Source of the DNA: a virus
Taxonomy: Duplodnaviria; Caudoviricetes
IMG/VR virus record: IMGVR_UViG_3300037195_002099
Coordinates: 1-36,372 of that record
Length of the DNA: 36,372 nt
Strand: one strand, 5' to 3'
Positions 4,548 through 34,205 of this stretch are shown piece by piece (the stretch's first letter is position 1; each line of letters starts with the position of its first letter). Under the pieces are notes generated by a model. That model made no database searches, was not told the DNA's origin, and saw only the letters and a list, made by a program, of their open reading frames with translations. Made by a program: the position numbers and the translations under genes.

Positions 4548-5747
4548 TCAATGTTTCCGGTAGGTTTTGGTTAAGTCGCCTTTGACGGTGTGACCTCTTC
4601 GGCGCAGTTGATTTGAAAAGCGGGCGCGGTCATGGTGGCTGTGCGATGCTTGTCGCAATAAGCCGTAATAGCTGTTGGCCGATTCATATAGGTTCTTTGA
4701 GTCCATTGACCTGACCCGGTCCATGGCGAGATTGAACGTGCGCCGGCGTAACGTGCGGTGCCATGGCCTGATCACCTGACCAACAAAATCAACACCACGA
4801 TCGAGCGGTTGGAGAATCGTTTTCTTTGGGTTTAAGCTGGCATTGAGCTCGTTTTGCAGCACTGTTTCGATCTGATGCCGTGCTTGGTTTAGCCATTGCG
4901 GCGACTCGTGCAGTAATACGAAATCATCCACATAGCGGATGTAGTGCCGGCACTTTAGGCTGTGCTTTACGAACTGATCCAGGACGTTCAGATATACGTT
5001 TGCAAAGAACTGGCTGGAAAGGTTGCCAATGGGCAGGCCTAAATAAGAGGGCTGATTGCACAGGCGTTTATGCGGCGGTACCAGCTTTAGCAGCGCTGGG
5101 TTGCCACGCAACTCGTAGTTCTCACGGGGGTCATGAAACAAGATGGTGTCTGCCAACTGGAGCCACCACGGTTCATGAATATGCCTGGCCAACAGATTGC
5201 GCACGATCCGCTTATCGATGCTCACAAAGAAGTTTGCCAGATCGCACTTCATATAGTGCGCAGGCCGGCTCCAGTTTTGAGTGATGCTCCTTGCTTTGGA
5301 TTCAAGCCGTGTGGCTGCGTAGGCAGTGCCTCGGCCTGGAATGCACGCGCAGGAGTCTGCGATAAAACGAGCCGTGAACCGTGGGGAAATTTTGTTGTGC
5401 AGTAAGTGATGAACCACGCGGTCACGGAAAGTCGCGGCCCACACTTCTCGTGGTTTAGGGTGGGTGATGATGAAGCAAACCGATTTTCCAGGCCGGTAGT
5501 GCCCGTTTACGAGCTCGTCGTGAAGTTCACGCAGGTTGTCTTCAAGTTTCTCTTCAAAAGCAAGAGCGCTGGCACTATTGCGTTTTCGTTCACGGCAGTC
5601 GAAGTATGCGTCTATCAGTTCGCCAAACGTAAAGTCAGCAGGTGCGCTCCAATCTGCGGACGGCACGGGCGCGAAGCTCGACACCCTTGTGGTTGTTGTT
5701 CTGATTGCCGTTGTTGAAGTTCTGATTCCAGGCATAGCTGGACTCAT
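4548..5747 (-). CDS. DGR reverse transcriptase
   Basis: KPREVWAATFRDRVVHH, KCDLANFF, GLPIGNLSSQFFANVYL (DGR-type IGxxxSQ), YIRYVDD, GVDFVG; frame open to 5957, nearest ATGs at 5747/5735, start uncertain. Confidence 0.96.
   Translation of the reverse strand: MSPAMPGIRTSTTAIRTTTTRVSSFAPVPSADWSAPADFTFGELIDAYFDCRERKRNSASALAFEEKLEDNLRELHDELVNGHYRPGKSVCFIITHPKPREVWAATFRDRVVHHLLHNKISPRFTARFIADSCACIPGRGTAYAATRLESKARSITQNWSRPAHYMKCDLANFFVSIDKRIVRNLLARHIHEPWWLQLADTILFHDPRENYELRGNPALLKLVPPHKRLCNQPSYLGLPIGNLSSQFFANVYLNVLDQFVKHSLKCRHYIRYVDDFVLLHESPQWLNQARHQIETVLQNELNASLNPKKTILQPLDRGVDFVGQVIRPWHRTLRRRTFNLAMDRVRSMDSKNLYESANSYYGLLRQASHSHHDRARFSNQLRRRGHTVKGDLTKTYRKH
5650..5745 (-). repeat. DGR template repeat (TR)
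   Basis: GAG TCC AGC TAT GCC TGG AAT CAG AAC TTC AAC AAC GGC AAT CAG AAC AAC AAC CAC AAG...GTC CGC AGA TT; 8 AAY codons; aligns without gaps to both VRs. Confidence 0.97.
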
Positions 5748-5883
5748 CGTGCTATCTACGTCGCCCGGTCGATTATTCAACGGGGAAACTGCGCAGGACC
5801 TGGCCGGCAAGGTGACGGAGGTTTCCTTTGTGCGCATGTCGGTGCCTTTGTGGGGCAGCGGCACGACCAGATTGAATTTCCGC

Positions 5884-6258
5884 TCAGTCATGACGGCCTT
5901 GACCTCCATGAATCGGGCGGGTTGCGGCGCGGCGCCATCCATTGGCCTGCTTGCCAATACTCGTTGTTAATTCGACCGCCTTTGCGTAGCTCGGGCGGGA
6001 GATAACACGCTTGTCGTGGCCGAGCCGTAGCATCAGGTTGATTACCTGGACTCGCTCCAACAGTTCAATAAGGTGCGGTTCTTTGTCTTGTGCGACATTG
6101 GCCCGAAACACCAGGACAACAATTTCAATGCACTCGTTGGAAATCTTCTCTCCAATCGAGCGTTTGAAATTACGGTCCATGTGCTTAACGAGCTCGGTGA
6201 CAACATCGAGCAAGTTGTAAGCGACCTTGTAAATGGGCAGGTTGGTGTGGATGGCCAT
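5884..6258 (-). CDS. avd: DGR accessory variability determinant (Avd-like four-helix-bundle protein)
   Basis: 124 aa, LPIYKVAYNLL...FKRSIGEKI...IGKQANGW pattern; lies between the targets and TR/RT. Confidence 0.9.
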   Translation of the reverse strand: MAIHTNLPIYKVAYNLLDVVTELVKHMDRNFKRSIGEKISNECIEIVVLVFRANVAQDKEPHLIELLERVQVINLMLRLGHDKRVISRPSYAKAVELTTSIGKQANGWRRAATRPIHGGQGRHD

Positions 6259-6276
6259 GCTGGTTAAATGACTGAA

Positions 6277-6744
6277 TTAATCAATAATTAATCTGCGGAC
6301 GGCACGGGCGCGAAGCTCGACACCCTTGTGGTGGTAGTTCTGAATGCCGTAGTAGAAGTACTGAAACCAGGCATAGCTGGAATCGCTCTCGTGTTCCTGG
6401 TTCGACCAGTACCAGGCGTTGGCGAATTCACCACGCAGGTTCGCAAACAAAAGGGCCTGTTCCTGACGTGAGGGCAGGTCGCCGCCATTTTTTGCCGCCC
6501 ATTTGCCCGCTTTGGCCCACGTGGCTTCTTCAATCTCGCCTGGCAGTAGGATCAAATGGTGCGAAGGCTGGCCTTCAGTGCCGAGTGCGATGCCGGCGTA
6601 ACGTTCGCCCGGGAAAAGCTTGATTGTTGTGGCCGGAACTTCGTAGTCGTTGGGCTGTAGCTGGTTTGCGTACGTGTTGATCAGGCCTGCCAAGCGCTCT
6701 TGCTCGGCTTTGATTGATTCAAGTGTGATGGCTGTCATGCTCAC
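6277..6744 (-). CDS. DGR target protein 1 (DUF1566/Lcl C-type-lectin-like fold)
   Basis: GDLPSRQEQALL, WYWS, AW.Q.F..G, RARAVRR motifs; 3' end is VR1. Confidence 0.93.
   Translation of the reverse strand: MSMTAITLESIKAEQERLAGLINTYANQLQPNDYEVPATTIKLFPGERYAGIALGTEGQPSHHLILLPGEIEEATWAKAGKWAAKNGGDLPSRQEQALLFANLRGEFANAWYWSNQEHESDSSYAWFQYFYYGIQNYHHKGVELRARAVRRLIID
6290..6381 (-). repeat. DGR variable repeat VR1
   Basis: 92 bp matching the TR with 8 mismatches, all at TR adenines (7 A>T, 1 A>C). Confidence 0.96.
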
Positions 6745-6761: not shown

Positions 6762-7121
6762 TTAAATGGGCAATCTGCGGACGGCACGGGCGCGAAGCTC
6801 GACACCCTTGTGGCTGCCGTTCTGACTGCCGTAGATGAAGAACTGAATCCAGGCAGAGCTGGACTCGATTTCGTGCTCCTGGTTCGACCAATAGACGTCC
6901 TTTTGAAACTGATCCCTGCAGGTGTTCCAAAGCATGGCAAGCTCGATCTTGTTGGGCAGGTCGCCGCCGATGCTCTTGGCCCATTCAAGCTGCTCCGACC
7001 AGCTGGCGTCGTCGTTGTCGCCCGGTAGCAGAATGAGGTGGTACACGTCCCCGCGTTGATCGCCGATTGCGCCGATATAGGTTTCGCCTTCGGCAAGAGG
7101 GGGTATTTGTAGTTGCTGCAT
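6762..7121 (-). CDS. DGR target protein 2 (DUF1566/Lcl C-type-lectin-like fold)
   Basis: Paralog of target 1 (HLILLPG, GGDLP, YWSNQEHE); 3' end is VR2. Confidence 0.93.
   Translation of the reverse strand: MQQLQIPPLAEGETYIGAIGDQRGDVYHLILLPGDNDDASWSEQLEWAKSIGGDLPNKIELAMLWNTCRDQFQKDVYWSNQEHEIESSSAWIQFFIYGSQNGSHKGVELRARAVRRLPI
6771..6866 (-). repeat. DGR variable repeat VR2
   Basis: 96 bp matching the TR with 10 mismatches, all at TR adenines (5 A>T, 4 A>G, 1 A>C). Confidence 0.96.
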
Positions 7122-7614: not shown

Positions 7615-7658
7615 ATAGTAGCAATTCGCTACCTATCTTGTCAATAGCAAATTGCTAC
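7615..7658 (-). promoter_or_regulatory. pL-like promoter with two operator-like palindromes (OL)
   Basis: TTGACA (7644-7639), 18 nt, TACTAT (7620-7615); GTAGCAATTCGCTAC at 7618-7632 and ATAGCAAATTGCTAC at 7644-7658. Confidence 0.8.
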
Positions 7659-8423: not shown

Positions 8424-9143
8424 TCAAAACTCTTCGCTGCGCCAAACTTTCAATACTCGGCCAAATACTTCAAAGTCCATTGTTTTGTCGATAGTCCAGT
8501 CGCGGTACGCGCTGTTTTCCGAGATTGCCAGGAGACCTTTCCCAGGCACTCGTTGCAATCGTTTAATGAAGCCTTCGTTTTCGACTCGGAAGAAATAAAC
8601 TGAATCGAAATCGACCAAATTAACGCCAAGATCGACAATAAGAGGATCGCCTGGATTGAACATGGGGCGCATGGAGTCTCCAAAGCCGGTAACAATGCAA
8701 AGATTTGCCGTTGATGAAAAACCTTTAATGTTTTTATCAAGCCACTCGTTGCTTACTGACCAACTGTGGATCAAGCCCGGCTGATCTTTGAGCTGAAGTC
8801 CTCCGCCCATTGCCCCTCCCGTGTCGTATTGTTTAATTATGACTTGATTATGCTTTTTAGATCCTAAGTAGGCAATGTTTTCCGAGGTACTATTTTCATC
8901 TGCCCAAAGATCTGGGTGCGGTTGGTCAATCCAATAAGGTTGCTCGCCAAGGGCTTCTGCGATTTTCTTCGCAACTGTATCGCCCAATTTTCGCGGGTTT
9001 TTATCTTTTTCGTTTTGAAAGCCTTGCAGTATTTGCTCTAAATATTTTTTGCTGCAATTTGCGGCCTCAGCGAGCGTGGCGACACCTCCGAAAAAACGGA
9101 TGGCATAGCGCAGGTTGGCAAGGCGTATTTCTCGATTATCCAT
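8424..9143 (-). CDS. cI: CI-like repressor (HTH plus S24 autoprotease domain)
   Basis: N-terminal helical domain; AMG cleavage-like region, GDSMRP (Ser) and FIKRLQ (Lys); divergent from cro. Confidence 0.92.
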   Translation of the reverse strand: MDNREIRLANLRYAIRFFGGVATLAEAANCSKKYLEQILQGFQNEKDKNPRKLGDTVAKKIAEALGEQPYWIDQPHPDLWADENSTSENIAYLGSKKHNQVIIKQYDTGGAMGGGLQLKDQPGLIHSWSVSNEWLDKNIKGFSSTANLCIVTGFGDSMRPMFNPGDPLIVDLGVNLVDFDSVYFFRVENEGFIKRLQRVPGKGLLAISENSAYRDWTIDKTMDFEVFGRVLKVWRSEEF

Positions 9144-9153
9144 AAATGGAATG

Positions 9154-9222
9154 GTAGCTTTTTGCTACCCGCTCAGATACCAGCAAATTGCTATTGATTT
9201 TCTGGTAGCAACTCGCTACTAT
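9154..9222. promoter_or_regulatory. OR region: three operator-like palindromes and pR-like promoter
   Basis: GTAGCTTTTTGCTAC 9154-9168, CCAGCAAATTGCTAT 9180-9194, GTAGCAACTCGCTAC 9205-9219; TTGATT, 17 nt, TACTAT at 9194-9222. Confidence 0.8.
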
Positions 9223-12875: not shown

Positions 12876-13382
12876 ATGATGACAAATCACCTTCGTTCAC
12901 TACCAACTGTCAGTGAAACGGAGGGGAAAAGTGCGTCTACTCATCCGGTCATTCCTTCGGAGATTCCTACTCCGCCTGGCAAATTAAGCAAGCGCGAAAA
13001 ATTGGTTTGGAAGCATATTACACAGGCGCTTTTTGAGTATGGCCTGATTCATCGTACCGACGCGATCATGCTTCTGGTCATCTGCCGAACCTTTGTGCGA
13101 TGGGTTGAGGCCGAAGAACAGTTGGAAGATATCATTGAGCAGAACGGTGGCACTTACATTGTGTCGACGCCGAATGGGTACGAGCAGCCCCACCAGTTGT
13201 TCTATCTCTCGCGCACTCTGAAAAAAGAGCTGTTGCAATGGCTTCCGGAGGCAGCCTTAACGATTCCATCGTTCGCTAAGGCGATTGAATCTCGCCAGGC
13301 GCCCACGCAAGGCACATTGTTTGAAGATCCCGTAGAGGCGCATCGCCGTCGTAAGACCGCGCTCGGCATGCGTTCGGTATGA
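12876..13382 (+). CDS. Terminase small subunit (P27-like)
   Basis: PPGKLSKREKLVW...GLIHRTD...NGYEQPH; overlaps terL start. Confidence 0.85.
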   Translation: MMTNHLRSLPTVSETEGKSASTHPVIPSEIPTPPGKLSKREKLVWKHITQALFEYGLIHRTDAIMLLVICRTFVRWVEAEEQLEDIIEQNGGTYIVSTPNGYEQPHQLFYLSRTLKKELLQWLPEAALTIPSFAKAIESRQAPTQGTLFEDPVEAHRRRKTALGMRSV

Positions 13383-15061
13383 CTGCGGCGGTGGCGGTTG
13401 AGCGTTCCTTTGATTGGGACGCTTATGGCCGGGCCGTTATGGCCGGCGAAATTGTGGTGTCGCGCTGGACGCGACTCGCAGTTGAGCGACACTACAAAGA
13501 CCTGGAGTCCTGTCACGAGCGGGGCCTGTGGTTTTCTGAAGCGCATGCCCAGCACGCACTCGAGGCGTTTCTGTTCTTGCGCCACTCCAAAGGTGAGTGG
13601 GCTGGCCAGCCGTTTGAGTTGTCGCCCTGGCAACAGTTTTGGGTGGCGGTCGCTTTTGGTTGGATGCGCGGCGATGGCAGTCGACGTTTTCGTGAGGTGT
13701 GGCTTGAGGTGCCACGCAAGAACGGGAAAACGACGCTGCTTGCGGGGATTGGGTTGTACCTGTTCTGGTTCGATGGTGAGGGTGGCGCCGAGGTGTATGC
13801 CGCTGCCACCAAAATGGATCAAGCCAAGATTCTGTACAGCGAGGCGGAGCGGATGGTTCAGTCGTCCCCACTGCTGCGGCGCGATATTGGCCAAAAGCTT
13901 AACGTGCTTTACAACCCGACGCCTGGCAGAGCCGACGAGTTTCGGCCGCTTGGGCGCGACAGCAAAACGCTGGACGGTCTGAACCCGCATGGCGCGTTGC
14001 TCGACGAGGTGCACGCGCATCCGAATCGTGAGCTGTACGACGTGATCAAAACTGGTTTAGGTGCGCGGCGTCAGCCGATGGTCTGGCAAATTACGACCGC
14101 CGGCGAGAACTTGAGCGGATTCGGATACAGCCAGCATGAGTACGCCGAGAAAATCCTTGAAGGTGTATTTGAAGACGATGCGTTTCTTGCCGTCATTTAC
14201 ACGGTGGATCATCCAAAGAAATGGATGGATCCAGTCGAGTGGGGCAAGGCGAATCCAGGGCTGGGTGTATCGGTTTACCTGGAAGGCCTCCAAACGTCGG
14301 CGCAAAAGGCGCAAAGACAAACCAGCGAGTTGCCGAACTTTCAAACCAAGCGGCTCAATATTTGGTTGAGCGGCGGCTCCAAGTGGATCCCGGTTGATGA
14401 TTGGCAGGCTTGCGGCGATGCGTCGCTCAAGATTGAAGACTTTGCCGGCGAGCCGTGTTGGGTTGGGCTGGACCTGGCTGAGAAAAAAGACATTGCCGCC
14501 ATGGCGATTGTGTTTCGCCGCGGCGGTCGGTGCTTCGTGTTTTTCAAGCTGTACCACAACGAAGACCAAATTAACGCGCCTGAGAATCGGCATTTTTACA
14601 CGTGGGAAAAGTCCGGTCATTTATTGATGTCGCCCGGCAACGCAACCGATTTCAACGATATTCGCAATGACCTTGTGGTGCTGCGGGATGCACACCAGGT
14701 GCAAGAGGTGATCTACGACCCCAAATTTGCGGCTTATTTTGCGGCCCGTTTGGCCGAAGACGACAGCTTATTGATGGTGGATATGCCGCAAACATCAAGC
14801 CGGTTCACCTTGCCGATTGTCAGTATTGAGAATTTGGTATTGACCAAAGACCTGGTACACGACGCGAACCCCGCAGTGGCCTGGATGATCAGTAACGTGG
14901 TTATGCGTGAATCGAAGTTTTCAGGGTTGCGACACCCGACGAAAGAGAAACCCGAAAACAAGATCGATGCAGTCGTAGCGTTGATTATGGCGATGGGTCG
15001 CGCGATGAATGAGGATCCGGACGGTAGTGTTATTTCCCAGGGCTTTGTGGTGATCGACTGA
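13379..15061 (+). CDS. Terminase large subunit
   Basis: VPRKNGKTT Walker A, LLDEVHA Walker B, ITTAG, GLDLA and KIDAVVA nuclease motifs. Confidence 0.97.
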   Translation: MTAAVAVERSFDWDAYGRAVMAGEIVVSRWTRLAVERHYKDLESCHERGLWFSEAHAQHALEAFLFLRHSKGEWAGQPFELSPWQQFWVAVAFGWMRGDGSRRFREVWLEVPRKNGKTTLLAGIGLYLFWFDGEGGAEVYAAATKMDQAKILYSEAERMVQSSPLLRRDIGQKLNVLYNPTPGRADEFRPLGRDSKTLDGLNPHGALLDEVHAHPNRELYDVIKTGLGARRQPMVWQITTAGENLSGFGYSQHEYAEKILEGVFEDDAFLAVIYTVDHPKKWMDPVEWGKANPGLGVSVYLEGLQTSAQKAQRQTSELPNFQTKRLNIWLSGGSKWIPVDDWQACGDASLKIEDFAGEPCWVGLDLAEKKDIAAMAIVFRRGGRCFVFFKLYHNEDQINAPENRHFYTWEKSGHLLMSPGNATDFNDIRNDLVVLRDAHQVQEVIYDPKFAAYFAARLAEDDSLLMVDMPQTSSRFTLPIVSIENLVLTKDLVHDANPAVAWMISNVVMRESKFSGLRHPTKEKPENKIDAVVALIMAMGRAMNEDPDGSVISQGFVVID

Positions 15062-16386
15062 TGCTTTTAAATCTATTCAAGGGTTCTTCAGGCAAAACAG
15101 CGCCGCCCGAACGCGTTGAGCCCTCGGTGGGCAACATCACGGAAGGGGAGACTGTAACGTCTTCTGATTCCATCAAAATGTTTGAGATTTTCGGAGACCC
15201 GCGTACGGCTTCCGGTGCCGTGGTCAATGAGAAAACCGCAATGCGCGTATCGGCGGTGTATGCCAGCGTGAGCTTGATCGCAGGCTCTATCGGCCAGTTG
15301 CCGTTGCCGATCTACGAGCGCGGCTCGGATGATCGAAAGCGAGTCGATCACCCATATTGGTGGTTGCTGAACGAGGAGTTTGCGGCTAACTGGACAGCCA
15401 CGGCAGCGTGGGAATTTTTGACTACTCAGGTTCTGTTGCGCGGCGACGGCATTGCTTACTTGAGCAGGAATCGGGCGGCACAGGTCCAAAGCATCATCCC
15501 ATGGCCACGCGATCGCGTTTCGATTGTTGAGCAACCCCGGCAAAACAGTCGCTCACCAAAGCGCTTGCAGTATACGTTTCACGACGAATTGGGGTATTTC
15601 ACCGTCGACCAGGCTGATGTGCTTCACCTTCCCGGGTTTGGGTTCAACGGCGTGCATTCTATGTCGGTGATCCAGTGGGGTGCGCGTAACGGGATCGGTA
15701 TTGCTTTGCAGGGTGATGAGCACGCCGGCAAGTTCTTTAGCGAGGGCGGTAAACCCGAGGTCGCGGTGACTACTTCCGGAAAAATGTCACCCGACCAACA
15801 AGCGGATTTCCGCACGGCGTGGGTGGCGAAATACGGCGGCATTCAGGGCAATCGACGTATTCCTTTGATCCTGACTGAAGGGTTGGACGTTAAAGAGCTC
15901 ACCATGTCGGCGGTTGATCAGCAGTTGCTCGAGTCGCGCCAATGGCAGGTCATTGATGTTGCTCGCGCTTTCGGTGTGCCGCCACACATGATTGGTGAAA
16001 CGACCAAATCAACAAGTTGGGGTTCCGGTATCGAGCAGATGTACATCGGGTTTGTACGTCTTACGTTAAGACCCCATTTGCAGCGCTTTAAACATGAGTT
16101 GAACCGGAAACTATTCAGTACGCCGCGCTACTTCGTCGAGCATAACGTTGATGGGCTCATGGCGGGTGACAGTAAGGCTCAATCGGTTTACTTCGGGCGT
16201 GCGCTGGGTGGCCCTGGCGCACAGGGCTGGATGACGATTAATGAGGTACGTCGACTGAAAAACCTGCCACCTGTTCCAGATGGCGACACGTTGTATCGCC
16301 CTGACATGTCGGCAGCGCCGCCAAGTAGCAGTGAACCTGATGATGATGATGAGGACTCAAGAAAGGACGACGATGAAACAACTTAA
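15061..16386 (+). CDS. Portal protein (HK97 family)
   Basis: SAVYASVSLIAGSIGQLPL, LLRGDG, VARAFGVPPHMIG, MTINEVR..NLPP. Confidence 0.96.
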   Translation: MLLNLFKGSSGKTAPPERVEPSVGNITEGETVTSSDSIKMFEIFGDPRTASGAVVNEKTAMRVSAVYASVSLIAGSIGQLPLPIYERGSDDRKRVDHPYWWLLNEEFAANWTATAAWEFLTTQVLLRGDGIAYLSRNRAAQVQSIIPWPRDRVSIVEQPRQNSRSPKRLQYTFHDELGYFTVDQADVLHLPGFGFNGVHSMSVIQWGARNGIGIALQGDEHAGKFFSEGGKPEVAVTTSGKMSPDQQADFRTAWVAKYGGIQGNRRIPLILTEGLDVKELTMSAVDQQLLESRQWQVIDVARAFGVPPHMIGETTKSTSWGSGIEQMYIGFVRLTLRPHLQRFKHELNRKLFSTPRYFVEHNVDGLMAGDSKAQSVYFGRALGGPGAQGWMTINEVRRLKNLPPVPDGDTLYRPDMSAAPPSSSEPDDDDEDSRKDDDETT

Positions 16387-22407: not shown

Positions 22408-22420
22408 CATGGAGCTGGAT

Positions 22421-23213: not shown

Positions 23214-23214
23214 C

Positions 23215-25038: not shown

Positions 25039-26339
25039 TGAGTTGGAAAGAAAAGCGCTTACCCGCCTCCTTTCGCGGCGTGCCGTTTGAGGTAGTTCGA
25101 GACTCTCAGCCAGCTGGCCAAAGAACGCAGGTTCATGAATACCCACAACGCGATAAGCCCTATGTTGAGGCGCTGGGTAAACGCACGAATGAGATCAAGA
25201 TTACTGCTTTTGTTGCAGGTAACGATTGCATTGAGCAGCGTGATCGATTGCTTGAAGCGATTGAACAAACCGGCTCTGGGGAGTTGGTCCACCCGTGGTT
25301 GGGAAGCCTGACAGTTAGTTGTACCGATTGCAATTACTCGCACGATCGTTCGGCACAAGGCGTTGTTCGATTCGAGCTCACATTTGTGGAGGGCGAGTCG
25401 GAGCCGTCGTATCCGGTCGCAGGCGTGGACGCGGCTAACGCTCTTAATAGTTCGGCTGAGGATATCCAGGCATCCGCACTGGAGCGCTTTACCGGCTCGC
25501 TGGATTCAATTGATTTGTCGCAGATTAATGCGGAGGCGGTGCTTAATCCCGTGCGTCAGGTGTTAACCGTTGTGGAAGATGTTTATGGCGGGGCGCTGGG
25601 TGTGTTGGGTTCAGCGCAGGGCGTAATTGAGTCAGTGATGGCAAGTCCGGCTAACTTTGCTCAATCGGTGTTTGGGGTTATCACTGACGTGAGCTCGACG
25701 TTCTCTGGCTTTTATTCGCGTGCTCGCGGTGCGACATCCTTGTTTGGTTTATCAAATCGCACCGAAGGTATGCAGCGCTTGCAGGGCACGCTCATGCCGT
25801 CGGGCAATGCTAATCGTGTCTTTGCCTCGGCAATTCGTTCCTTGGTGCAGGATGCGGTGGCGGCTGATGTGGTGCGGGGTGTTGCGACGTTGCCGATTAA
25901 ACCGGTGTCTGTTGAGCGTGCCGGCGCCGTGGTGCTCAATGCGATGCCGCAACAGAGTGTGTCGGTCGATTCAGGCTCACTTGGCCAAGTCGTTGATGGC
26001 TTGGTTGGGGTTGATCGTGTTCAACCCCCTGTGGCTAATGATGTACTAAGTGTTCGAGATGGTGTGTCGGAGTCGCTGTGGTCTTTGGCCGAGCAGTCAC
26101 CTGCGTCGCATTATGAGGTTTTGGCTCAGGCGCGTGTGGCTGCGACACGTCATTTGGTCGCGGTTGCAAAACAGGGTGCCGCCCTTACTCGTTACGACAA
26201 TCCTGCACCGGCACCGGCGTTGGTGCTTGCCTACCGACGTTTTGGAGATGCGGCACGGGTCGGTGACATTGTGGCGAGAAATGCCGTTAGTCATCCTGGT
26301 TTTGTGCCGGCGCGAACACTGATGGTTCCAAGGGGTTGA
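25038..26339 (+). CDS. DNA circularization protein (Mu gpN-like)
   Basis: ASFRGVPF, HEYPQRD.PYVE.LG, GELVHPWLG, HPGFVP. Confidence 0.93.
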   Translation: MSWKEKRLPASFRGVPFEVVRDSQPAGQRTQVHEYPQRDKPYVEALGKRTNEIKITAFVAGNDCIEQRDRLLEAIEQTGSGELVHPWLGSLTVSCTDCNYSHDRSAQGVVRFELTFVEGESEPSYPVAGVDAANALNSSAEDIQASALERFTGSLDSIDLSQINAEAVLNPVRQVLTVVEDVYGGALGVLGSAQGVIESVMASPANFAQSVFGVITDVSSTFSGFYSRARGATSLFGLSNRTEGMQRLQGTLMPSGNANRVFASAIRSLVQDAVAADVVRGVATLPIKPVSVERAGAVVLNAMPQQSVSVDSGSLGQVVDGLVGVDRVQPPVANDVLSVRDGVSESLWSLAEQSPASHYEVLAQARVAATRHLVAVAKQGAALTRYDNPAPAPALVLAYRRFGDAARVGDIVARNAVSHPGFVPARTLMVPRG

Positions 26340-26340
26340 C

Positions 26341-27444
26341 GTGGCGGACGAAGATGTAAACCACGTCACCTTGGCGGTTGACGGTATGGAGTACGGCGGC
26401 TGGAAGTCGGTAGAGATATCTGCAGGTATCGAGCGTCAAGCTCGCGATTTCACACTGGGTATCAGTTGGCGCTGGCCGGGTAGTGGTGAGTCGCCGACGC
26501 GCATTCGTCACGGCTCGCGCTGCGAAATACGTATTGGCGGCGATTTGGTGTTAACCGGATACGTGTATGCAACGCCGGTAACGTATGACGCGCGTCAAGT
26601 GACGGTCGGGGTGGCGGGCCGTTCTTTGCCTTCGGATTTGGTTGATTGCAGCGCTGCTCGTGGTCAGTGGCGTGGGCAGTCGGTTGCCAGCATCGTAACT
26701 GCGCTGGCTAAGCCCTATGGGTTATCCGTTTTTGATCAAAGCAGCGACAAACTAATTGTTGCCGATCATCAAACCGAACCGGGCGAAACAGTCTTTGCAT
26801 CAATTGATCGATTGCTCGATATGTCGGCACTGTTATCCACAGACGATGAGATGGGTCGAGTCGTGATTGCTGGCCTAGGCGCAGCCGGTCAGACAGCCGA
26901 TGCGCTCGAACTGGGCGTCAATGTACTGAGTTGTTCTGCGCCACTTGATTTTTCCGGCGTGTTTTCCGAATACGAGTGCCTTGGCCAGCAAGCAGGTGAT
27001 GACGAAGTTTTTGGCGCTGATGTGGCTGAGGTGCAAGGTTCAGTCTCCGATAGCCGTGTTACGCGTTACCGAAATTTGACTGTACAGCCGCAGGGGCAGA
27101 TTACCCCGGCGATGGCTGCGAAACGGGCGACCTGGGAGCGGGAAAGCCGGATGGGCAAGGCGCTGTCTGTTGATTATGAGGTTCAGGGTTGGCGACAAAG
27201 TAATGGTCGGCTTTGGCAGCCTAACGCTTTTGTGCGTGTACGCGATTCGATGGTCGGGTTTGATCGCGACATGCTCATTGGGTCGGTGACGTATCTGCTG
27301 GATGAGCGTGGGATGCGTACACGGCTCACCGTTGCACCGCCGGGCGCGTATTCGCCGGAACCAAAGCCACCCAAAAAGAGTGATAGCGGCAAGGGCGGCG
27401 ATTCCTTTGCGTACCTTTTACCTGCTGATTGGGATAAATCGTAA
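26341..27444 (+). CDS. Baseplate hub (Mu gp44/gpP-like)
   Basis: YGGWKSVEISAGIERQARDF, DLVDCS, VQGWRQSNGRLWQPN. Confidence 0.92.
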   Translation: MADEDVNHVTLAVDGMEYGGWKSVEISAGIERQARDFTLGISWRWPGSGESPTRIRHGSRCEIRIGGDLVLTGYVYATPVTYDARQVTVGVAGRSLPSDLVDCSAARGQWRGQSVASIVTALAKPYGLSVFDQSSDKLIVADHQTEPGETVFASIDRLLDMSALLSTDDEMGRVVIAGLGAAGQTADALELGVNVLSCSAPLDFSGVFSEYECLGQQAGDDEVFGADVAEVQGSVSDSRVTRYRNLTVQPQGQITPAMAAKRATWERESRMGKALSVDYEVQGWRQSNGRLWQPNAFVRVRDSMVGFDRDMLIGSVTYLLDERGMRTRLTVAPPGAYSPEPKPPKKSDSGKGGDSFAYLLPADWDKS

Positions 27445-27998
27445 TGGGCAAGATGCTTAATTTTCTGGTTCGGGGCACGATTTCCCTGGTTGAAGCAACG
27501 CGCAAACTTCAAGTGCTGCAAGTGCGGTTAACCGCCAATGAGGTGAAAGACGGGGTCGAGCATTTCGAGCCTTACGGGTTTTCTTCGCACCCTTTGCCTG
27601 GGTCGGAGGTGGCGCTGGGTTTCGTCGGCGGTGATCGGTCCCATTGTTTGGCGTTGGTCGTTACGGACCGTCGGCATCGGCCGCAGGGTTTGGAGGCTGG
27701 GGAGGTGTGCTTGTTTACTGACGAAGGCGATGAGATTCGTTTCAAGCGAGGCCGAGTCATTAGCGTGATTGCCGGCAGCAAGGTCGAAGTGACGGCTCCG
27801 GAAGCGGTTTTTAACTGCTCGACCAGCGTCACGCTGAACACGCCCAAAGTAATTGCCTCGGGCGACATCGAGGCTGCAGGCCAGATTCGCGACGCTACGG
27901 GCACGATGCAGTCGATGCGCGATACCTACAACAATCACAACCATCCGGAAAACGATAGCGGTGGCCCTACCGACTCACCTAATCAGCCAATGATATGA
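27444..27998 (+). CDS. Baseplate spike (gpV / Mu gp45-like)
   Basis: VEHFEPYGFSS.P, DRRHRP.GL..GEV, C-terminal HNH metal motif. Confidence 0.93.
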   Translation: MGKMLNFLVRGTISLVEATRKLQVLQVRLTANEVKDGVEHFEPYGFSSHPLPGSEVALGFVGGDRSHCLALVVTDRRHRPQGLEAGEVCLFTDEGDEIRFKRGRVISVIAGSKVEVTAPEAVFNCSTSVTLNTPKVIASGDIEAAGQIRDATGTMQSMRDTYNNHNHPENDSGGPTDSPNQPMI

Positions 27999-28396
27999 GT
28001 ATTCGTGAACTACTGGCATCGGCCGATCAGATTGAAAGAGCCGTTGTAATCAGTCTATTTACCTGGCGCAGGGCCGAGGATTCTGACCCCGTTGATGACG
28101 ATGAGCGTTATGGCTATTGGGGTGATGCGTACCCCGATGTTGCTCGTGATCGGATTGGGTCCCGGTTGTGGTTGCTGCGCCGGCGCTCGTTAACCGCAGA
28201 AACTATTCAAAACGCAGAGCGATATGCCCGTGAGGCGTTGGCTTGGATGCTGGAGGATGAGGTTGTGAGTGCTGTGCAGGTGGATCTGGTCCGGCCAAAT
28301 CCGACCAGGTTGGATTTATACGTGACGCTGACACTAGATGAGGGCCAGCGTGAATTGCGGTTTGACGATGTATTAGGGGTGATCAATGCCGTTTGA
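27995..28396 (+). CDS. Mu gp46-like baseplate protein
   Basis: AVVISLFTWRRA, GYWGD, IGSRLWLL.R, EALAWMLED. Confidence 0.92.
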   Translation: MSIRELLASADQIERAVVISLFTWRRAEDSDPVDDDERYGYWGDAYPDVARDRIGSRLWLLRRRSLTAETIQNAERYAREALAWMLEDEVVSAVQVDLVRPNPTRLDLYVTLTLDEGQRELRFDDVLGVINAV

Positions 28397-29432
28397 AGTT
28401 CCAACCTTACCAGCGCTTGTGCAGCGTGCAAATGAAGATTTGGCGCGCGCAGGTATTGATGGTGTGCTGCGACGTTCGGACAGCGCCGTGCTGGCCCGGG
28501 TGATGTCTGGTGGCGTGTTCGGTTTGTATGGCCTATTGGCGTGGCAGGCCCGGCAGATTTTGCCCGACACCTGCGATGAAGACATGCTGGCCAGGTGGGC
28601 GAATCTGAAAGGTGTTCTGCGTACACCCGCGACGGCTTCTACAGGCGCAATTGATGTCGTCGGCGCCGACGATGTCATGGTGCCCGAAAACATGATCTGG
28701 CAAACCCGAGGTGGTCTGCAGGTTGTCGTGACACAAGATACCGTTATTGCCTCTGGTCAGGCTTCAGTCCCCGTTCAGGCATTGTTGGTTGGACAAGCTG
28801 GAAACTTATCTGAAAGCGTGCAGGTGACGGCCATTTCCCCGGTCGCTGGTGTGACCGATCGCGCCACGGTGGCCGCTGGTGGTCTTGTTGGTGGAACTGA
28901 TCAAGAGCCTTTAGAGAATTGGCGGCAACGTGTTGTAAGGGCATTCCGGATACAGCCTCACGGCGGTGACCTGGAGGATTACGTTACTTGGGCATTGGAG
29001 GTGCCAGGCGTGACACGGGCCTGGGCACGCAGAGCATGGTTCGGTCCCGGAACGGTTGGTGTCTTTGTGGTGCGCGACAACGATCAAAACATCGTGCCTG
29101 ATGCGCCCGAGTTGGCGGCCGTGCTGGATCACATTGAATCTAAGCGCCCGGTTACTGCCGAGGTACAGATTCTGGCCCCAACCCTTTTACCCATTGATTA
29201 CCAGGTGCGATTGGATCCGGACACTGAGGCGGTGCGAGGAAAAGTGGTGCAGGCCTTGCGGGAATTGTTTTTATCTGAGGCCGACCTGGGCGGAAGGCTG
29301 TACTGGTCGCACATGACCGCGGCTATCAGCAATGTTCCGGGCGAGTTGGATCACACGCTTTCGCAACCCTCTGTCGATGTGGTGCCGCAGCCGCATGAGC
29401 TTCCCGTGTTGGGAGACATTACATGGCTGTGA
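28386..29432 (+). CDS. Baseplate J / Mu gp47-like protein
   Basis: QILPDTCDE, GG.D.E, PHGG...DYVTWALEVPGVTRAW, GPGTV. Confidence 0.94.
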   Translation: MPFEVPTLPALVQRANEDLARAGIDGVLRRSDSAVLARVMSGGVFGLYGLLAWQARQILPDTCDEDMLARWANLKGVLRTPATASTGAIDVVGADDVMVPENMIWQTRGGLQVVVTQDTVIASGQASVPVQALLVGQAGNLSESVQVTAISPVAGVTDRATVAAGGLVGGTDQEPLENWRQRVVRAFRIQPHGGDLEDYVTWALEVPGVTRAWARRAWFGPGTVGVFVVRDNDQNIVPDAPELAAVLDHIESKRPVTAEVQILAPTLLPIDYQVRLDPDTEAVRGKVVQALRELFLSEADLGGRLYWSHMTAAISNVPGELDHTLSQPSVDVVPQPHELPVLGDITWL

Positions 29433-30019
29433 GGTCTGAAGCCGATTACCTTTCCCAGCTGCGGCAATTGATGCCGCCCGGGCCTGCCTGGGATCCAGAG
29501 CTTTACCCGCTGCCTGAAATGGTTGCACAAGCCGCCGCTGCCGAGATGGCACGCGTCGACGCGCGCGCAGCTGATCTGTTATCGGAAATGTTCCCCGGCA
29601 CCATTCGCGAATTGCTCTCGGATTGGGAGCGTGTGATGGGTCTGCCCGATGAGTGTCTGGGGCCCCTGTCATCAGCTGGTGAGCGCGTCAATGAAGTAGT
29701 GCGCCGCTTTGCGGAAGTAGGGCGACAGGACCGCGCCTATTTCGAGGAAATTGCACACCGTTTGGGTTATCCGGATGCGTGGATTGAGGAAATGCGGGCA
29801 CCACGTTTCGGTGCCGCGCGCTTTGGTCGATCACGATTTGGTAGTTGGGACGCGCAATTTTTGTGGATTTTGCACTTAGGTGCTCGCCTGCCAGGCGGTA
29901 CGCGATTCGGTATGGCTCGGTTCGGCGATCGCTTTGGCGCCAACCGAAACGATTTTGTGGAGTGCATCGTAAGGCGATACGCCCCGGCGCACACGATAGT
30001 ATTTTTCGATTACGACTGA
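29423..30019 (+). CDS. YmfQ/DUF2313 (Mu gp48-like) baseplate protein
   Basis: LMPPGPAW, LLSDWERVMGLPD.C, ECIVRRYAPAHT. Confidence 0.9.
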   Translation: MAVRSEADYLSQLRQLMPPGPAWDPELYPLPEMVAQAAAAEMARVDARAADLLSEMFPGTIRELLSDWERVMGLPDECLGPLSSAGERVNEVVRRFAEVGRQDRAYFEEIAHRLGYPDAWIEEMRAPRFGAARFGRSRFGSWDAQFLWILHLGARLPGGTRFGMARFGDRFGANRNDFVECIVRRYAPAHTIVFFDYD

Positions 30020-30026: not shown

Positions 30027-30839
30027 ATGGATTACCCAAAAAGCGACCCAAGTGTAGGCCTGGTGAATGGCCAGTTTGTTGACGAGGACTCAATTACCGG
30101 CCAGCCAGGCTCACTCATTCCAGCTGCTTGGGCCAATGCCTTGATGACGGAGCTGTTGACGGTCGTTGATCACGCTGGATTAGAGCCTGATGAAGAAGAC
30201 AATACGCAGGTACTGGCGGCTTTGCTTGAAGTTTTTGCAACGCGGTCGGATTCGATACCGAAATTCGCAACCCGGCCTGTTACTAATGTAGGTCCTGTTA
30301 TCTATGTTGAAGATCAGATGACGCTGATGCACTGGGTATCCACGGCGTTTTTCACTGGGTATCGGTCACCGTTTTCCGGAAAGCTGGAGTTTGGCTGGAC
30401 GCCAACGCCATTGCCCTGGCAAGTAGAGGCAATCGGTAATACGCTGAACGAGACGGATCACGGTGGCGTAATTGCACGTTTCAGGGAGTCGGGGCTGACC
30501 GTTGCCTTGGGTAGTTGGGTGGCCGGAGAGTACAAGATTGCTGATATGGGCGGCGGTGAGTGGAAGGCGCCGGATATGCGGGATATGTTCCTGCGGTTTA
30601 CAGGTACTGACGCTGACACTGCAAATGCGAGGATGCTTGGAACTTTTCAAGAACATGCAGTTGAAGACCATTTCCATGGGGACTGGCCTATCTCAAATCA
30701 AACAGCCGGCGGCGGCCTCGGAAGTTCTTTCGCAACCGGTGCGGGGCAAACTTCAAATACAGCTGGAATGATTACCGGAAGCTCATCAGAAGAAACCCGC
30801 TCGGTAAACGCCGCTTTCGTGCCGTTCATAAATTTATAA
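30027..30839 (+). CDS. Tail fibre: constant N-terminus plus currently expressed shufflon cassette A (30619-30839)
   Basis: MDYPKS...GSLIPAAWAN baseplate-attachment N-terminus, collar-like PDMRDMFLR, TANAR junction, tip with HFH and ETRSVNAAFVPFINL. Confidence 0.92.
   Translation: MDYPKSDPSVGLVNGQFVDEDSITGQPGSLIPAAWANALMTELLTVVDHAGLEPDEEDNTQVLAALLEVFATRSDSIPKFATRPVTNVGPVIYVEDQMTLMHWVSTAFFTGYRSPFSGKLEFGWTPTPLPWQVEAIGNTLNETDHGGVIARFRESGLTVALGSWVAGEYKIADMGGGEWKAPDMRDMFLRFTGTDADTANARMLGTFQEHAVEDHFHGDWPISNQTAGGGLGSSFATGAGQTSNTAGMITGSSSEETRSVNAAFVPFINL
30619..30629 (+). repeat. Shufflon crossover core 1 (inside tail fibre gene)
   Basis: CTGCAAATGCG, within the T-A-N-A codons. Confidence 0.9.
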
Positions 30840-31079
30840 CTGGTGCGCATGCCACGTTTGTTGATCTGTTTTCTGTTGAAGTGCGAGCTACTCGAGAAGC
30901 ATCAAAATTAAATACTTTATACGTCGATCCACCACCTAATGGGGTCGGACCAAGCCCAGTGTTTGTTAAGTAGAGAGCACCAGAGCCTGTTCCCGAGGCA
31001 TTAAAAACATCGCCGATTGTTCCAGTGATGTTCTGAATGGCATCAGACTGTTCGCTACCAAGCATCCTCGCATTTGCAG
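30826..31079 (-). other. Silent tail-fibre cassette B
   Basis: ANARMLGSEQSDAIQNITG...ENRSTNVACAPVINL*. Confidence 0.92.
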
Positions 31080-31106
31080 CGGCATGTACATCTGCCTGCA
31101 AATGCA
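31069..31106. repeat. Back-to-back crossover cores 2 and 3
   Basis: CGCATTTGCAG-cggcatGTACatctgc-CTGCAAATGCA. Confidence 0.9.
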
Positions 31107-31307
31107 AGGGTGTTGGGTTCGTCGCAAATTTCGGCATTTGAAGCTCACTCTCATTTAGCCACGCACAATCAAATAGGGCTGCAATTTGCAACAGGAGGTA
31201 GCGTTTATGATGCGAATCCAAACCTGGCCACGTTGAGTGGGGGCACTACGGGAGGCGCAGAAACTCGCCCCATTAACGTGGCGCTGTTGCCCGTTATAGA
31301 TTTATGA
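31096..31307 (+). other. Silent tail-fibre cassette C
   Basis: ANARVLGSSQISAFEAHSH...ETRPINVALLPVIDL*. Confidence 0.92.
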
Positions 31308-31517
31308 AAGCCATAAAAGCGCTATTTCGTGGCCTAGTTTCGGACTCTCCAGAAAGGCTAATAGAAGCCGATTGCGATCTTGCGGTCCCGTTCGATGCCT
31401 CTGCTGGGTATTGACCAGAACCTGTGGATCCCGACCAGCCTTGAGCGCTGATAAGGCTATGTTTGTGGGACTTGAAAGCATCACCCTGCTTAGAACCTAG
31501 TATTCGCGCATTTGCAG
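31294..31517 (-). other. Silent tail-fibre cassette D
   Basis: ANARILGSKQGDAFKSHKH...ETRPRNSAFMAFINL*. Confidence 0.92.
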
Positions 31518-31544
31518 CGAAGCGTACACCTGTCTGCAAATGCG
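31507..31544. repeat. Back-to-back crossover cores 4 and 5
   Basis: CGCATTTGCAG-cgaagcGTACacctgt-CTGCAAATGCG. Confidence 0.9.
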
Positions 31545-31751
31545 CGATATCTGTCCAGCAAACAAACTGATGCAAATAAAAGCCAGTCTCACCGGGTCAA
31601 AGTTAATGGCGTTTCACTCCAAACGGGCGGTTCAAATGTGAACCAAATACTTGACTACTCGGCTTCGGCAGGGACCGTAAACACAAGCTCTGAAGGTGCG
31701 GCTGAAGCCCGACCAATGAATACTGCATTTAGTCCATTCATAAGTTTATAA
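31534..31751 (+). other. Silent tail-fibre cassette E
   Basis: ANARYLSSKQTDANKSQSH...EARPMNTAFSPFISL*. Confidence 0.92.
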
Positions 31752-31958
31752 GCGGTATAAATGCGACGTTATCTGGACGCGCTTCGGCACCTCCGCTGTT
31801 CGCGAGCGAGCCGATATACGTTCCATCGTAAGGCGGATCGTAAGTTCGCCAGCCCGAGAAACCGCCTGATGTATTCGACGCATATGCTCCCGAAAGTGTA
31901 TGACTATGCTGTTTGTTCTGGTTTTGTTGCGAGCTGGACAACAACCTCGCATTTGCAG
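31738..31958 (-). other. Silent tail-fibre cassette F
   Basis: ANARLLSSSQQNQNKQHSH...EARPDNVAFIPLINL*. Confidence 0.92.
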
Positions 31959-31985
31959 CGGCATGTACGTCTGTCTGCAAATGCG
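31948..31985. repeat. Back-to-back crossover cores 6 and 7
   Basis: CGCATTTGCAG-cggcatGTACgtctgt-CTGCAAATGCG. Confidence 0.9.
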
Positions 31986-32183
31986 AGGGGCCTGGGAACT
32001 TACCAAGTCGATATTTTTGAGGCTCACGAACATGACCAAAGAGGGATCAATAACGTCACTACGCAGGGTGCTGGAGCATATAACATTGCTGCGACAGGCT
32101 CTATTGGTGTCACGACCTCAACAGAGGGTGGGGCCGAAACCAGGTCTGTAAACACAGCTTTTGTTCCATTCATAAGTTTATAA
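31975..32183 (+). other. Silent tail-fibre cassette G
   Basis: ANARGLGTYQVDIFEAHEH...ETRSVNTAFVPFISL*. Confidence 0.92.
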
Positions 32184-32393
32184 AAGGGGTAAATGCGGTG
32201 TTATCTGGTCTGGTTTCTGGCATCGGATTAAAACGCTGTATAAATGAAGTAGTCAATGAACTACCAGCCCCGCCATTAAGTGACCAGTTCCCGGCGCCCG
32301 CTCCGGGTATTGAGGTTAGGTAGCCGGATAGCTGCATAATAAAAGGCCCAACGGAATCGGCCTGCCCTGTTCCTAAGCCCCTTGCATTTGCAG
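32170..32393 (-). other. Silent tail-fibre cassette H (absent from the ORF track)
   Basis: Hand translation: ANARGLGTGQADSVGPFIMQLSGYLTSIPGAGAGNWSLNGGAGSSLTTSFIQRFNPMPETRPDNTAFTPFINL*. Confidence 0.9.
32383..32393 (-). repeat. Shufflon crossover core 8 (right boundary)
   Basis: CTGCAAATGCA on minus strand, preceded by CA as in core 1. Confidence 0.9.
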
Positions 32394-32469
32394 TGACACA
32401 AACCCATAACGTCGCCTGACAGCCAGTCGACTTCCCTAAATAATTGATCTGCCCCGAACGGGGCTAGGA

Positions 32470-33207
32470 GTGTTTATGCTCAAAATATATCAACAGACTG
32501 ATCACAAGGGCGTGTACCTGTACAGCCAGCAGTTTGCCTCCAAGCCTTACCTGGCGGTGTCGGTCGCAGTGCCCCCGGTTCCCCCCGGCAAGCTGGCCCA
32601 GTGGGAAACGACTCTCAACCCCGTCATCGACAGGAATTGGGGTGAAGAGGGCACCGGCCAGTGGGTGATCAAAGATGATCACCGAAAAGCGGATCTGTAC
32701 CAGATCGCCGACGGCAGCAAGTACGAGCTCGAGCAAGAGATAGAGGGTCAGTCCTATGATGGAATTGGCCCGGTACCGGCCTGGCTCACCCTGCAGGAAC
32801 GCCCCAGTAAGCACCACAACTGGGTTGACGGTGCCTGGGTACTGGACGTTGCCGCCGAGCTCGAAGACGCCAAGATCGATAAGCTGCGCGAAATCGATCA
32901 GGCGCGTGACCAGGCACTGGTTGCCGGCTTCACCCACAATGGCAACACGTTCGACAGCGATGCCAAAAGCATCCAGCGTATCAATGCCATCGCCACCCTG
33001 GCACTTATGGATCCGAACTTCAGCACGCCGTACATAACCAAAGACAACAACATCATTACCCTGGATGCCGCCGCCGTCGGCGCGTTGGGCACTGCCGCTG
33101 CGCAACACGAATCGTCGCTAGTGTTCCAGGCTCGCGCCTTGAAAGATCAGGTACTGGACGCCACTGATAAGTCTACTGTCGACGAGATTGTCTGGGTGGC
33201 TCCCTAA
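32470..33207 (+). CDS. Tail fibre assembly protein (Tfa-like, DUF4376-like C-terminus)
   Basis: W.IKDDHR, GIGPVP, HNWVDGAWVLD, GFTHNGNTFDSD, ARALKDQV..A.....VDEIVW. Confidence 0.85.
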   Translation: MFMLKIYQQTDHKGVYLYSQQFASKPYLAVSVAVPPVPPGKLAQWETTLNPVIDRNWGEEGTGQWVIKDDHRKADLYQIADGSKYELEQEIEGQSYDGIGPVPAWLTLQERPSKHHNWVDGAWVLDVAAELEDAKIDKLREIDQARDQALVAGFTHNGNTFDSDAKSIQRINAIATLALMDPNFSTPYITKDNNIITLDAAAVGALGTAAAQHESSLVFQARALKDQVLDATDKSTVDEIVWVAP

Positions 33208-34205
33208 GTGTCCTTGAGCTGTTCGAGCTGCTTTCTGCCCAGGTTGCTGCGCACCAACTTTCTGGCCAAGTCGCGGCCATGCGGATGATAGTAGCGAAGC
33301 AACATTCTGGTTGTTCGGTGTCCGGTGACCTTGGCCAACTCGTGCGCCTGGAACACAGTGGCCAGCCGGCTAGTGGACTCATGCCGCAGGTCGTGAAACC
33401 GCAGATCCCGAAAGTAGGCAGGATGCGGGCGGCGCCCGTACTTTTTGCATAGCGCTTCGTACATTTTTCTAGCTTTGGTTCTCGCCCGGATGAACGCCCG
33501 GGTAACTGCTTCGGGGCTGATGTCGAAAATGCGGCCGCGCATTGGCTTGCCGATCACGTGCTTACGCAGGCCGTCCTTGGCGAACGGGGAGAGCGGCACA
33601 TAGCGCGTGTCGCCATTTTTGGTATCGGTCAATGTGATGACGCCATGGGCAAGGTCGATCTGCTCGCGTTTGACCAGGGTTATTTCTGAGCGGCGCATGC
33701 CGGTCTCGACCGCTATCAGCATGATTAACGGAAGGTCGGGCGAGCTGGTTGCCCGACATAGCCACTCGAGCTCAGTTTTTGGACATTCATCCTCGGGGAC
33801 GCCGTTCAACCGGATTCGTTCGAACAGTCGCCGATCCCGGGCGTCATCGATGGCGGGGCGTCTGACCAGCTGCACCGGGTTGGCCAGCCAGTGCATTTGC
33901 CAGTCTTTTCGGGCCACCGTGTAAAGGTGGGAGAGCAGGGCAAGTCGACGTGTAACGGTGGAGGGTAAGTGTTCTTGGTGCCACTGGTCACGTAGTCGCA
34001 TCAGATCGGTTGGTGTGATCCGGTTAAGTGGCCGCGTGATCAGGTTTGTCGCGCGCCAAGTCTTGGCTAACGACAGTTCCTGGTAGTGGCTTTTTTTGTA
34101 TGCCGAAACCTCGGTCATATACCTGGTTAATGCCTGATCGAGAGTCGGGCAGATTCGTCTATGTCGTGCATTCAGTTTCATGACAAATGCTCGACTTTCT
34201 AACAC
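33204..34205 (-). CDS. Shufflon-type (Rci-like) tyrosine recombinase
   Basis: TLDQALTRYMTEVSAYKK N-terminus; catalytic ETGMRRSE, DTKNG, FHDLRHE, TGH, RYYH; adjacent to the cassette array; start may be ATG 34181. Confidence 0.92.
   Translation of the reverse strand: MLESRAFVMKLNARHRRICPTLDQALTRYMTEVSAYKKSHYQELSLAKTWRATNLITRPLNRITPTDLMRLRDQWHQEHLPSTVTRRLALLSHLYTVARKDWQMHWLANPVQLVRRPAIDDARDRRLFERIRLNGVPEDECPKTELEWLCRATSSPDLPLIMLIAVETGMRRSEITLVKREQIDLAHGVITLTDTKNGDTRYVPLSPFAKDGLRKHVIGKPMRGRIFDISPEAVTRAFIRARTKARKMYEALCKKYGRRPHPAYFRDLRFHDLRHESTSRLATVFQAHELAKVTGHRTTRMLLRYYHPHGRDLARKLVRSNLGRKQLEQLKDT

Follow-up and report, generated by a model that had tools for sequence, protein, structure and literature searches.

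A tail-fibre shufflon and an early-arm diversity-generating retroelement in one temperate phage: probable mosaic assembly of two separately mobile modules

Why does a single temperate phage carry two devices that vary its proteins, and do the two act as partners? The question is raised by IMG/VR record IMGVR_UViG_3300037195_002099 (positions 1 to 36,372; this whole stretch of 36,372 nucleotides is called the window below), in which a diversity-generating retroelement (DGR) lies among the leftward early genes and an invertible shufflon at the tail fibre. The original prediction read this as a division of labour, the shufflon switching receptors while the DGR evolves an intracellular binding function. 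We consider it likely that the phage is a mosaic of a separately mobile tail shufflon and an early-arm DGR with probably intracellular targets, and not a co-evolved partnership. The pairing is probably one of mosaic assembly because both devices are of known kinds and travel between phages mostly on their own.

According to profile searches of its open reading frames (ORFs), the record holds nearly all of a lambdoid-type temperate phage, with leftward early genes, cI and cII-like genes, terminase, portal, capsid, a Mu-like contractile tail and lysis genes. A named Pusillimonas metagenome-assembled genome (L103/G006, 3.3 Mb and incomplete, hereafter the host assembly) carries target 1 and the template repeat (TR) of the DGR at 100% identity. 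In this assembly, the gene for a separate 351-aa integrase directly adjoins the window's left end, and a 47-bp direct repeat (att) from the 3′ part of tRNA-Cys stands at both prophage ends, just outside the window; judged from these repeats, the prophage measures ~37.9 kb. The window is therefore one prophage, as had been proposed, integrated at tRNA-Cys of a Pusillimonas-type bacterium. The same integrase and att repeat rule out the recombinase beside the tail genes as the phage integrase.

The DGR is ordered target 1, target 2, avd, TR and reverse transcriptase (RT), and comprises the following features:
4548..5957, minus strand: DGR RT (Pfam RVT_1, E 3.3e-14; PHROG 1423, E 5.5e-117 from residue 108)
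5651..5745, minus strand: TR, 95 nt with 27 adenines, from repeat comparison
5884..6258, minus strand: avd accessory gene, 124 aa (Pfam bAvd, E 6.7e-13; PHROG 3206)
6277..6744, minus strand: target 2, 155 aa, an N-terminal helix (residues 8-28) plus a lectin-type domain, with variable repeat (VR) 2 at 6290-6384
6762..7121, minus strand: target 1, 119 aa, a stand-alone C-type-lectin-fold domain, with VR1 at 6772-6866

The RT contains the motifs GNLSSQ and YVDD; its coordinates are those of the open frame, which reads back through the TR into avd, and not of a defined start codon. Over 95 nt, VR1 differs from the TR at 10 positions, all of them TR adenines, and VR2 at 9 positions, 8 of them TR adenines, so that 18 of the 19 mismatches fall at A; the repeats share a GC-rich 3′ end. 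With profile matches for both RT and Avd and two VRs with adenine-restricted mismatches, the DGR is genuine, in agreement with the original prediction. A hairpin after VR2 was rejected, its fold being no better than those of shuffled sequences (z -1.1).

The tail region had also been described as free of TR-like sequence. The 68 non-A positions of the TR were scored on both strands of the whole window, giving 68, 68 and 67 at the TR, VR1 and VR2 and 34 at the best other site; because the next-best score was only 34, nothing in the tail region is TR-like. A search of the host genome with the TR, which had been suggested, was run on the host assembly and found no further VR in that incomplete sequence, the next hits being of 14-25 nt with E>=0.06. 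Among 21 near-complete phage records of relatives, picked by hand, none had a TR match outside the left-arm locus. Remote or tail VRs are thus ruled out in the window, in the host assembly as far as it goes and in these 21 relatives, and no structural gene in the window or the relatives matches the TR, as a tail receptor-binding target of the BPP-1 type would.

The window was compared with prophage G001, its closest DGR relative, which has the same early arm (RT 97%, Avd 100%). The two VRs differ between the phages at 15/95 and 17/95 positions and the rest of the cassette at 20/1048; 12 of the 15 and 14 of the 17 VR differences lie at TR adenines. Moreover, two TR-specific substitutions that separate the window from G001 appear in both VRs of each phage. 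Because the VR differences concentrate at TR adenines and TR-specific bases were copied into each phage's own VRs, the comparison shows that the DGR has retrohomed into both targets since the split from G001. The activity documented in this way is past activity.

TR/VR pairs from 151 relatives (loci L025-L158) show that substitutions within AAC codons are strongly non-independent between the two adenines: where the second had changed A>C, 93 of 101 cases kept A at the first. Adenines before G (CAG, GAG) were unchanged 99% of the time. This pattern looks like an RT context bias, possibly mixed with selection. An enrichment of tyrosine and glycine in the VRs was not kept as evidence of selection: usage of synonymous codons is very uneven (Ser via AGC 148 vs TCC 3), which points to RT context bias in the VR amino-acid spectrum and leaves no clear selection in it. 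In one relative, the TR (G057:C1:5497-5574) appears to have substitutions where other relatives show AAC codons and closely matches one VR, which would fit a transfer of VR sequence back to the template.

The shufflon and its neighbours lie at the end of the tail genes:
30027..30839, plus strand: tail fibre gene, a 198-aa constant part and the current 72-aa tip joined at site 1 (30619-30628) (PHROG 1858 tail fibre, E 1.8e-25)
30619..32393, no single strand: shufflon with 8 CTGCAAATGC sites and four segments of two opposed tip cassettes each, from site scan and tip alignment
32470..33207, plus strand: tail-fibre-associated protein (DUF4376), likely an assembly chaperone (Pfam and PHROG profile matches)
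33204..34205, minus strand: Rci-family tyrosine recombinase, likely an invertase (Pfam Phage_integrase, E 8.9e-17)

All 8 copies of CTGCAAATGC in the window fall within 30619-32393, in alternating orientation (0.16 expected; 0/100 shuffles). One in-frame fibre tip of 68-83 aa opens at each site, giving eight tips with pairwise identities of 32-53%. In runs X5 and X7, the intervals 30619-31517 and 31975-32393 are inverted on one contig, with joins exactly at the sites and 10-11 shared bases, and this arrangement brings tip 4 onto the fibre. Run X1 agrees with the window, and run X9, which has no cover over the tip cassettes, is uninformative on inversion. The host assembly shows the same alternative arrangement; since its contig breaks there and the fibre site contains an N gap, it was not counted as independent proof of inversion. 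This shufflon is a genuine one that has inverted at its sites, so that the eight-cassette recombinase shufflon claimed for the tail tip was confirmed by eight sites, eight tips, an Rci-family gene and two inversions. It has what marks Rci/Rin-type shufflons: short in-frame sites, one of them inside the constant gene, an adjacent tyrosine recombinase distinct from the integrase, and an alternative arrangement.

The recombinase matches 2,338 plasmid records, of which the one opened encodes a 34% identical protein and adjoins a pilV shufflon. It retains what we take to be the catalytic motifs, and this adjacent enzyme probably catalyses the inversions. The tips would set host range and switch receptors; a solved-structure match for the tail fibre was sought and none was found.

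A near-identical tail occurs in L008 (IMGVR_UViG_3300025236_000052, 5452-6114), with a recombinase at 98% and three tips, none in common with the window and two of them in direct orientation. Because so close a recombinase accompanies three unrelated tips, the tip store itself, on this comparison, turns over in size and content. One relative has more than 10 cassette hits (G113:C1:2309000-2316500). The spacers between back-to-back sites in the window (31058-31115, 31508-31543 and 31939-31984) are mutually similar, and they could be invertible or exchangeable themselves.

Target alignment gave 134 loci (78 from IMG/VR and 56 from GTDB, partly redundant), 95 with an RT within 10 kb and 39 without. 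TR-matching VRs were present in 82 of the 86 loci having avd and RT, and over 196 TR/VR pairs in relatives 2,330 mismatches fell at A vs 51 elsewhere. At least two paralogous targets were found at 80 of the 82 loci, extra targets up to 9 kb away being under TR control, and a target of 145-162 aa adjoins avd in 67 of 75 loci.

This DGR is mostly found without the shufflon. G001 differs in its head, has a tail of non-contractile type and lacks both such a recombinase and a shufflon. Among 50 longer records chosen from the 78 IMG/VR target records, 44 of them with RT, an Rci ortholog was found in one (1/50, or 1/44 with RT), namely G019 (68%, eight tips, same site). Nine others gave only 27-38% recombinase hits, and a serine recombinase exceeded the cut-off in a single record, as a 537-aa ORF distant from the tail genes. 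Conversely, five further shufflon-type records include an RT in G057 only, and the near-complete IMG/VR shufflon records besides the window have a DGR in 2 of 5 (G019 and G057; not G058, G060 or G061). The two short targets of G057 are distant members of the same family, with mismatches at A of 4/4 and 4/13.

The survey for DGR and Rci-shufflon co-occurrence that had been suggested was extended to 250 host-family genomes (Alcaligenaceae), besides the host assembly. An Rci ortholog was found in 23 and an RT in 14, each module being present in about 6-9% of the genomes; a fibre accompanied by at least two cassettes was present at 13 of the 14 further Rci loci inspected. RT and Rci lie in the same prophage in G099 (4 cassettes, 3 short targets) and in G095, which has a simpler switch of two or three cassettes bounded by a 49-nt inverted repeat. 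They are on different elements in G113, and G075 could not be placed either way. On the assumption of 250-750 prophages in the 250 genomes, 0.6-1.7 cases on one prophage would be expected; the 2-3 cases among the 14 lie within or just above this range. Thus a DGR with a recombinase-flanked switchable fibre recurs in at least four other phages (G019, G057, G099 and G095) at a count near chance, and the modules reassort freely among phages. As a description, the division of labour holds, since the devices act on different proteins and no VR lies in the tail; as a partnership special to this phage it does not, since the DGR sits in left arms without a shufflon and the shufflon is common without a DGR.

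The nature of the DGR targets was then considered. Both match Lcl_C/DUF1566, below the curated cut-off. For an AlphaFold model of target 1 (pLDDT 84.9), all top VIA-align rows were C-type-lectin folds. The best structural matches were the C-terminal domains of Legionella Lcl (Z 8.4, rmsd 3.9 over 94 residues) and Bdellovibrio Bd2740, the Mtd structure of BPP-1 scored Z 5.5, and Foldseek gave no match at E<=0.001. On this model, the VR lies at the C-terminus of a C-type-lectin fold. A hydrophobic N-terminus or lipobox was found in none of 149 homologous target ORFs. Longer target forms are rare (36 among 7,997 candidates scored vs 1,422 near-length homologs at the 90% cluster level); not one of 30 selected longer homologs hit a tail PHROG, and a Lar-like restriction-alleviation domain was present in one of them. 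The predicted control elements of the operon are:
7615..7657, minus strand: predicted leftward early promoter TTGACA-18-TACTAT (7644-7615), overlapped by two TAGC-N5-GCTA palindromes, from a sequence scan
8424..9143, minus strand: CI-like repressor with S24 peptidase domain (Pfam and PHROG profile matches)
9155..9218, no strand: two further TAGC-N5-GCTA palindromes and one degenerate copy, between cI and a divergent gene, from a motif scan

The promoter points toward the DGR operon, and the palindromes number 4 in the window vs 0.22 expected, at the leftward promoter and the cI switch. Because these putative operators cover the promoter and recur at the cI switch, CI would keep this operon silent in the lysogen. 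By appearance, the targets are early and non-secreted, and they would stay in the cytoplasm. Of the statement that the DGR acts on two small early proteins, the smallness stands, as the VRs lie in 119- and 155-aa genes downstream of the predicted operator-covered promoter; earliness and non-secretion are appearances from sequence features.

We propose that mosaic assembly joined the two separately mobile modules in this prophage. In the tail module, inversion would rejoin the fibre gene to any of eight stored tips, likely for receptor switching, while the early-arm DGR would rewrite adenines in a pair of small lectin-fold genes. Early in lytic growth, the encoded proteins likely bind some protein within the host cell. 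The targets would be non-tail because this DGR clade always targets such genes, and not because the shufflon freed the DGR. That the products neutralise a variable host defence protein or seize a host factor is a plausible suggestion, which we hold while leaning slightly to doubt. A broader proposal, that Alcaligenaceae temperate phages repeatedly assemble a two-tier kit of a fast, finite surface shufflon and an open-ended DGR library of intracellular binders acting as antibody-like counter-defence on induction, is rather doubtful.

Several observations weigh against this account. Legionella Lcl and Bdellovibrio Bd2740, the top structural matches of target 1, are presumably surface adhesins. 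The counter-defence choice stands on operon position and one Lar-like fusion, and the operator motif TAGC-N5-GCTA was taken post hoc from the window itself. Runs X5 and X7 probably represent one data set, because record length and depth are common to both, and they were flagged as possible sources. VR variants were not seen in contigs of runs X4, X6, X7 and X9, contigs being prone to drop rare variants and X9 having no cover at 6801-6883. Finally, genome-level co-occurrence of RT and Rci is above chance (4/14 vs 19/236, Fisher p 0.029), so that a mild enrichment is possible; the association is nominal.

This last value is also an argument for a co-adapted division of labour, in which receptor-switching shufflon phages preferentially gain or keep an early-gene DGR and the pair is selected together. 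The head and tail chassis vary among the phages that have the pair (the window, G019, G057, G099 and G095), two DGR subtypes are represented among them, and 2 of 5 near-complete IMG/VR shufflon records besides the window have a DGR. However, the Rci ortholog is missing from 43 of 44 RT-bearing records, the serine recombinase in 1/50 is that 537-aa ORF away from tail genes, and same-prophage counts (2-3 in 14 vs 0.6-1.7 for the assumed 250-750 prophages) are near expectation. The targets are the same with or without a shufflon, and we regard selection of the pair as quite improbable. A near-neutral passenger role, in which recombination carries the cassette from one early operon to another and the phage gains little from its targets, fits the partial loss or breakage of the cassette (39/134 loci without an RT within 10 kb) and the bias-shaped VR spectrum (Ser AGC 148 vs TCC 3), in which selection is not clear. 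Conservation of target frames, lengths and order (a 145-162 aa target beside avd in 67/75 loci), the 1,422 near-length homologs at the 90% cluster level, and extra targets kept under TR control up to 9 kb away make such a role very unlikely.

The targets might instead be minor virion or lysate-released lectins that aid adsorption, both engines then serving host recognition. The fold agrees with this, being of C-type-lectin type with the C-terminal domain of Lcl as its best match (Z 8.4, rmsd 3.9, 94 residues), the announcement of phage Magia suggests a host-range change (PMC7883833), and Roux et al. (bioRxiv 2020.04.01.020958) put most viral DGR targets among structural proteins. But the late genes are on the other strand, and the neighbours of the target genes serve replication and recombination; contractile and non-contractile tails alike accompany these proteins, and 30 longer forms include no tail-domain fusion; adsorption is a poor prospect for them. 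Alternatively, the targets might act between phages, by binding the proteins of a competitor or of a superinfecting phage while the prophage is induced or the cell co-infected. The proteins of rivals change fast, and hypermutation would pay against such ligands; at least two paralogous targets at 80/82 loci would suit several ligands, and the targets lack an export signal. Yet the operon stands behind repressor-type operators and is probably silent in the lysogen, when protection matters most, and no effector domain is attached to the targets or conserved beside them. We judge phage-versus-phage conflict unlikely, and keep to a mosaic with early targets directed at a host protein.

Each half of the mosaic is already in print. 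The DGR of Burkholderia cenocepacia phage Magia resembles that of the window: two short lectin-fold genes, avd, TR and RT in the leftward arm between repressor and integrase, with RT 63% and target 52% identical. Its authors noted targets in short reading frames and suggested a host-range change, and made no argument for a non-structural target role (PMC7883833). Unlike the window, Magia encodes another short target, its third, at a distal position, and its annotation shows no recombinase gene next to the tail fibre. Cultured carriers of this DGR clade include Magia, Haboob and Cruim01; the accessible portions of PMC11846083 and PMC12860723 contain no virion proteomics or DGR discussion for them.

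Other DGRs are alike in part. The short DUF1566 targets, two-target cassettes and prophage carriage recall CLec2/category 'd' DGRs, in which short DUF1566-only targets form 'about half' of the category (Wu et al. 2018, PMC5758913), and clade 3/PC_00009 (Roux et al., bioRxiv 2020.04.01.020958), the latter by description and not by assignment of the window RT. The exemplar of category 'd', Legionella LdtA, is a surface lipoprotein (PMC5758913), whereas the window targets have no signal, and most viral DGR targets were assigned to structural proteins (Roux et al., bioRxiv 2020.04.01.020958). Quimbyvirus also has a C-type-lectin target outside the structural module, proposed for phage-host conflict (Benler et al. 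2021, PMC8008677); it diversifies a structural target as well, whereas the window has none and varies its tail by inversion. Bordetella phage BPP-1 shares TR/VR adenine mutagenesis, Avd with RT, and the C-type-lectin fold (Z 5.5 to Mtd), but diversifies a tail fibre tip and not two small early genes.

For the shufflon, the constant N-terminal gene, the site-preceded C-terminal cassettes and the adjacent recombinase are those of Rin (Bifidobacterium prophages), Min of p15B (PMC6109161) and R64-type Rci/pilV, and the recombinase is of tyrosine type, as in Rin and Rci. The window differs in serving a contractile-tail fibre of a betaproteobacterial phage, in its site CTGCAAATGC and in its eight tips in four opposed pairs; its recombinase is 34% identical to the plasmid Rci homolog, and the likeness to Rin is one of layout. 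Phage tail shufflons with tyrosine recombinases have been described before and tail fibres are frequent inversion targets. DGR and shufflon were reported in different prophage clades in PMC8778435. A paper with both systems in one phage was not found in a literature search that left most subscription papers and supplements outside its coverage, so the pairing in one phage was not found in print.

The co-occurrence is therefore modest in itself, two known modules meeting in one mosaic genome, and the lasting interest lies in the ligand of the early targets. No functional study of this clade's targets was found. The clade is large (82 loci with working TR/VR pairs in this analysis), and with another device visibly in charge of its tail variation, this phage offers a clean case for asking what a DGR does when it leaves the tail untouched. 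If they are hypervariable anti-defence binders, this would be a new role for DGRs.

Two further features of the window were examined:
12876..30019, plus strand: terminase, portal, capsid, Mu-like contractile tail and baseplate genes, with no TR match
35678..36372, minus strand: 73-aa orphan ORF and 171-aa helix-turn-helix (HTH) gene in an acr-aca-like layout, from profile searches

The latter had been put forward as a possible third adaptive module, which gained nothing beyond its layout. The 171-aa HTH protein matches Aca2_YdiL at 26.2 bits (cut-off 23.8) and fits DUF4447 better at 34.7 bits. For the 73-aa ORF, searches of Pfam, PHROG and NCBIfam gave no match and only 2 homologs are known from this analysis; no related locus was found beyond the identical record, and no cas1 was found in the host assembly, which is incomplete. 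By layout, it remains a candidate acr-aca locus. Upstream of the 73-aa ORF, the host assembly has an inverted repeat of 9 bp around a 6-bp spacer (L159:1420-1450, immediately beyond the right end of the window), as expected for an autoregulated HTH operon. Another small HTH gene (G095:C23:886-1332) lies past the lysis genes, in the same position as in the window.

Two early-arm genes were also observed. The 180-aa ORF at 281-823 on the minus strand matches PHROG 9572 (labelled sulfatase-modifying factor), with no TR match and no Pfam hit. A zinc-ribbon and membrane-helix protein is encoded at 7833-8366 on the minus strand, in the interval from the early promoter to cI. Its gene has a terminator-like hairpin of its own, is missing from G001 and is a candidate accessory gene expressed in the lysogen.

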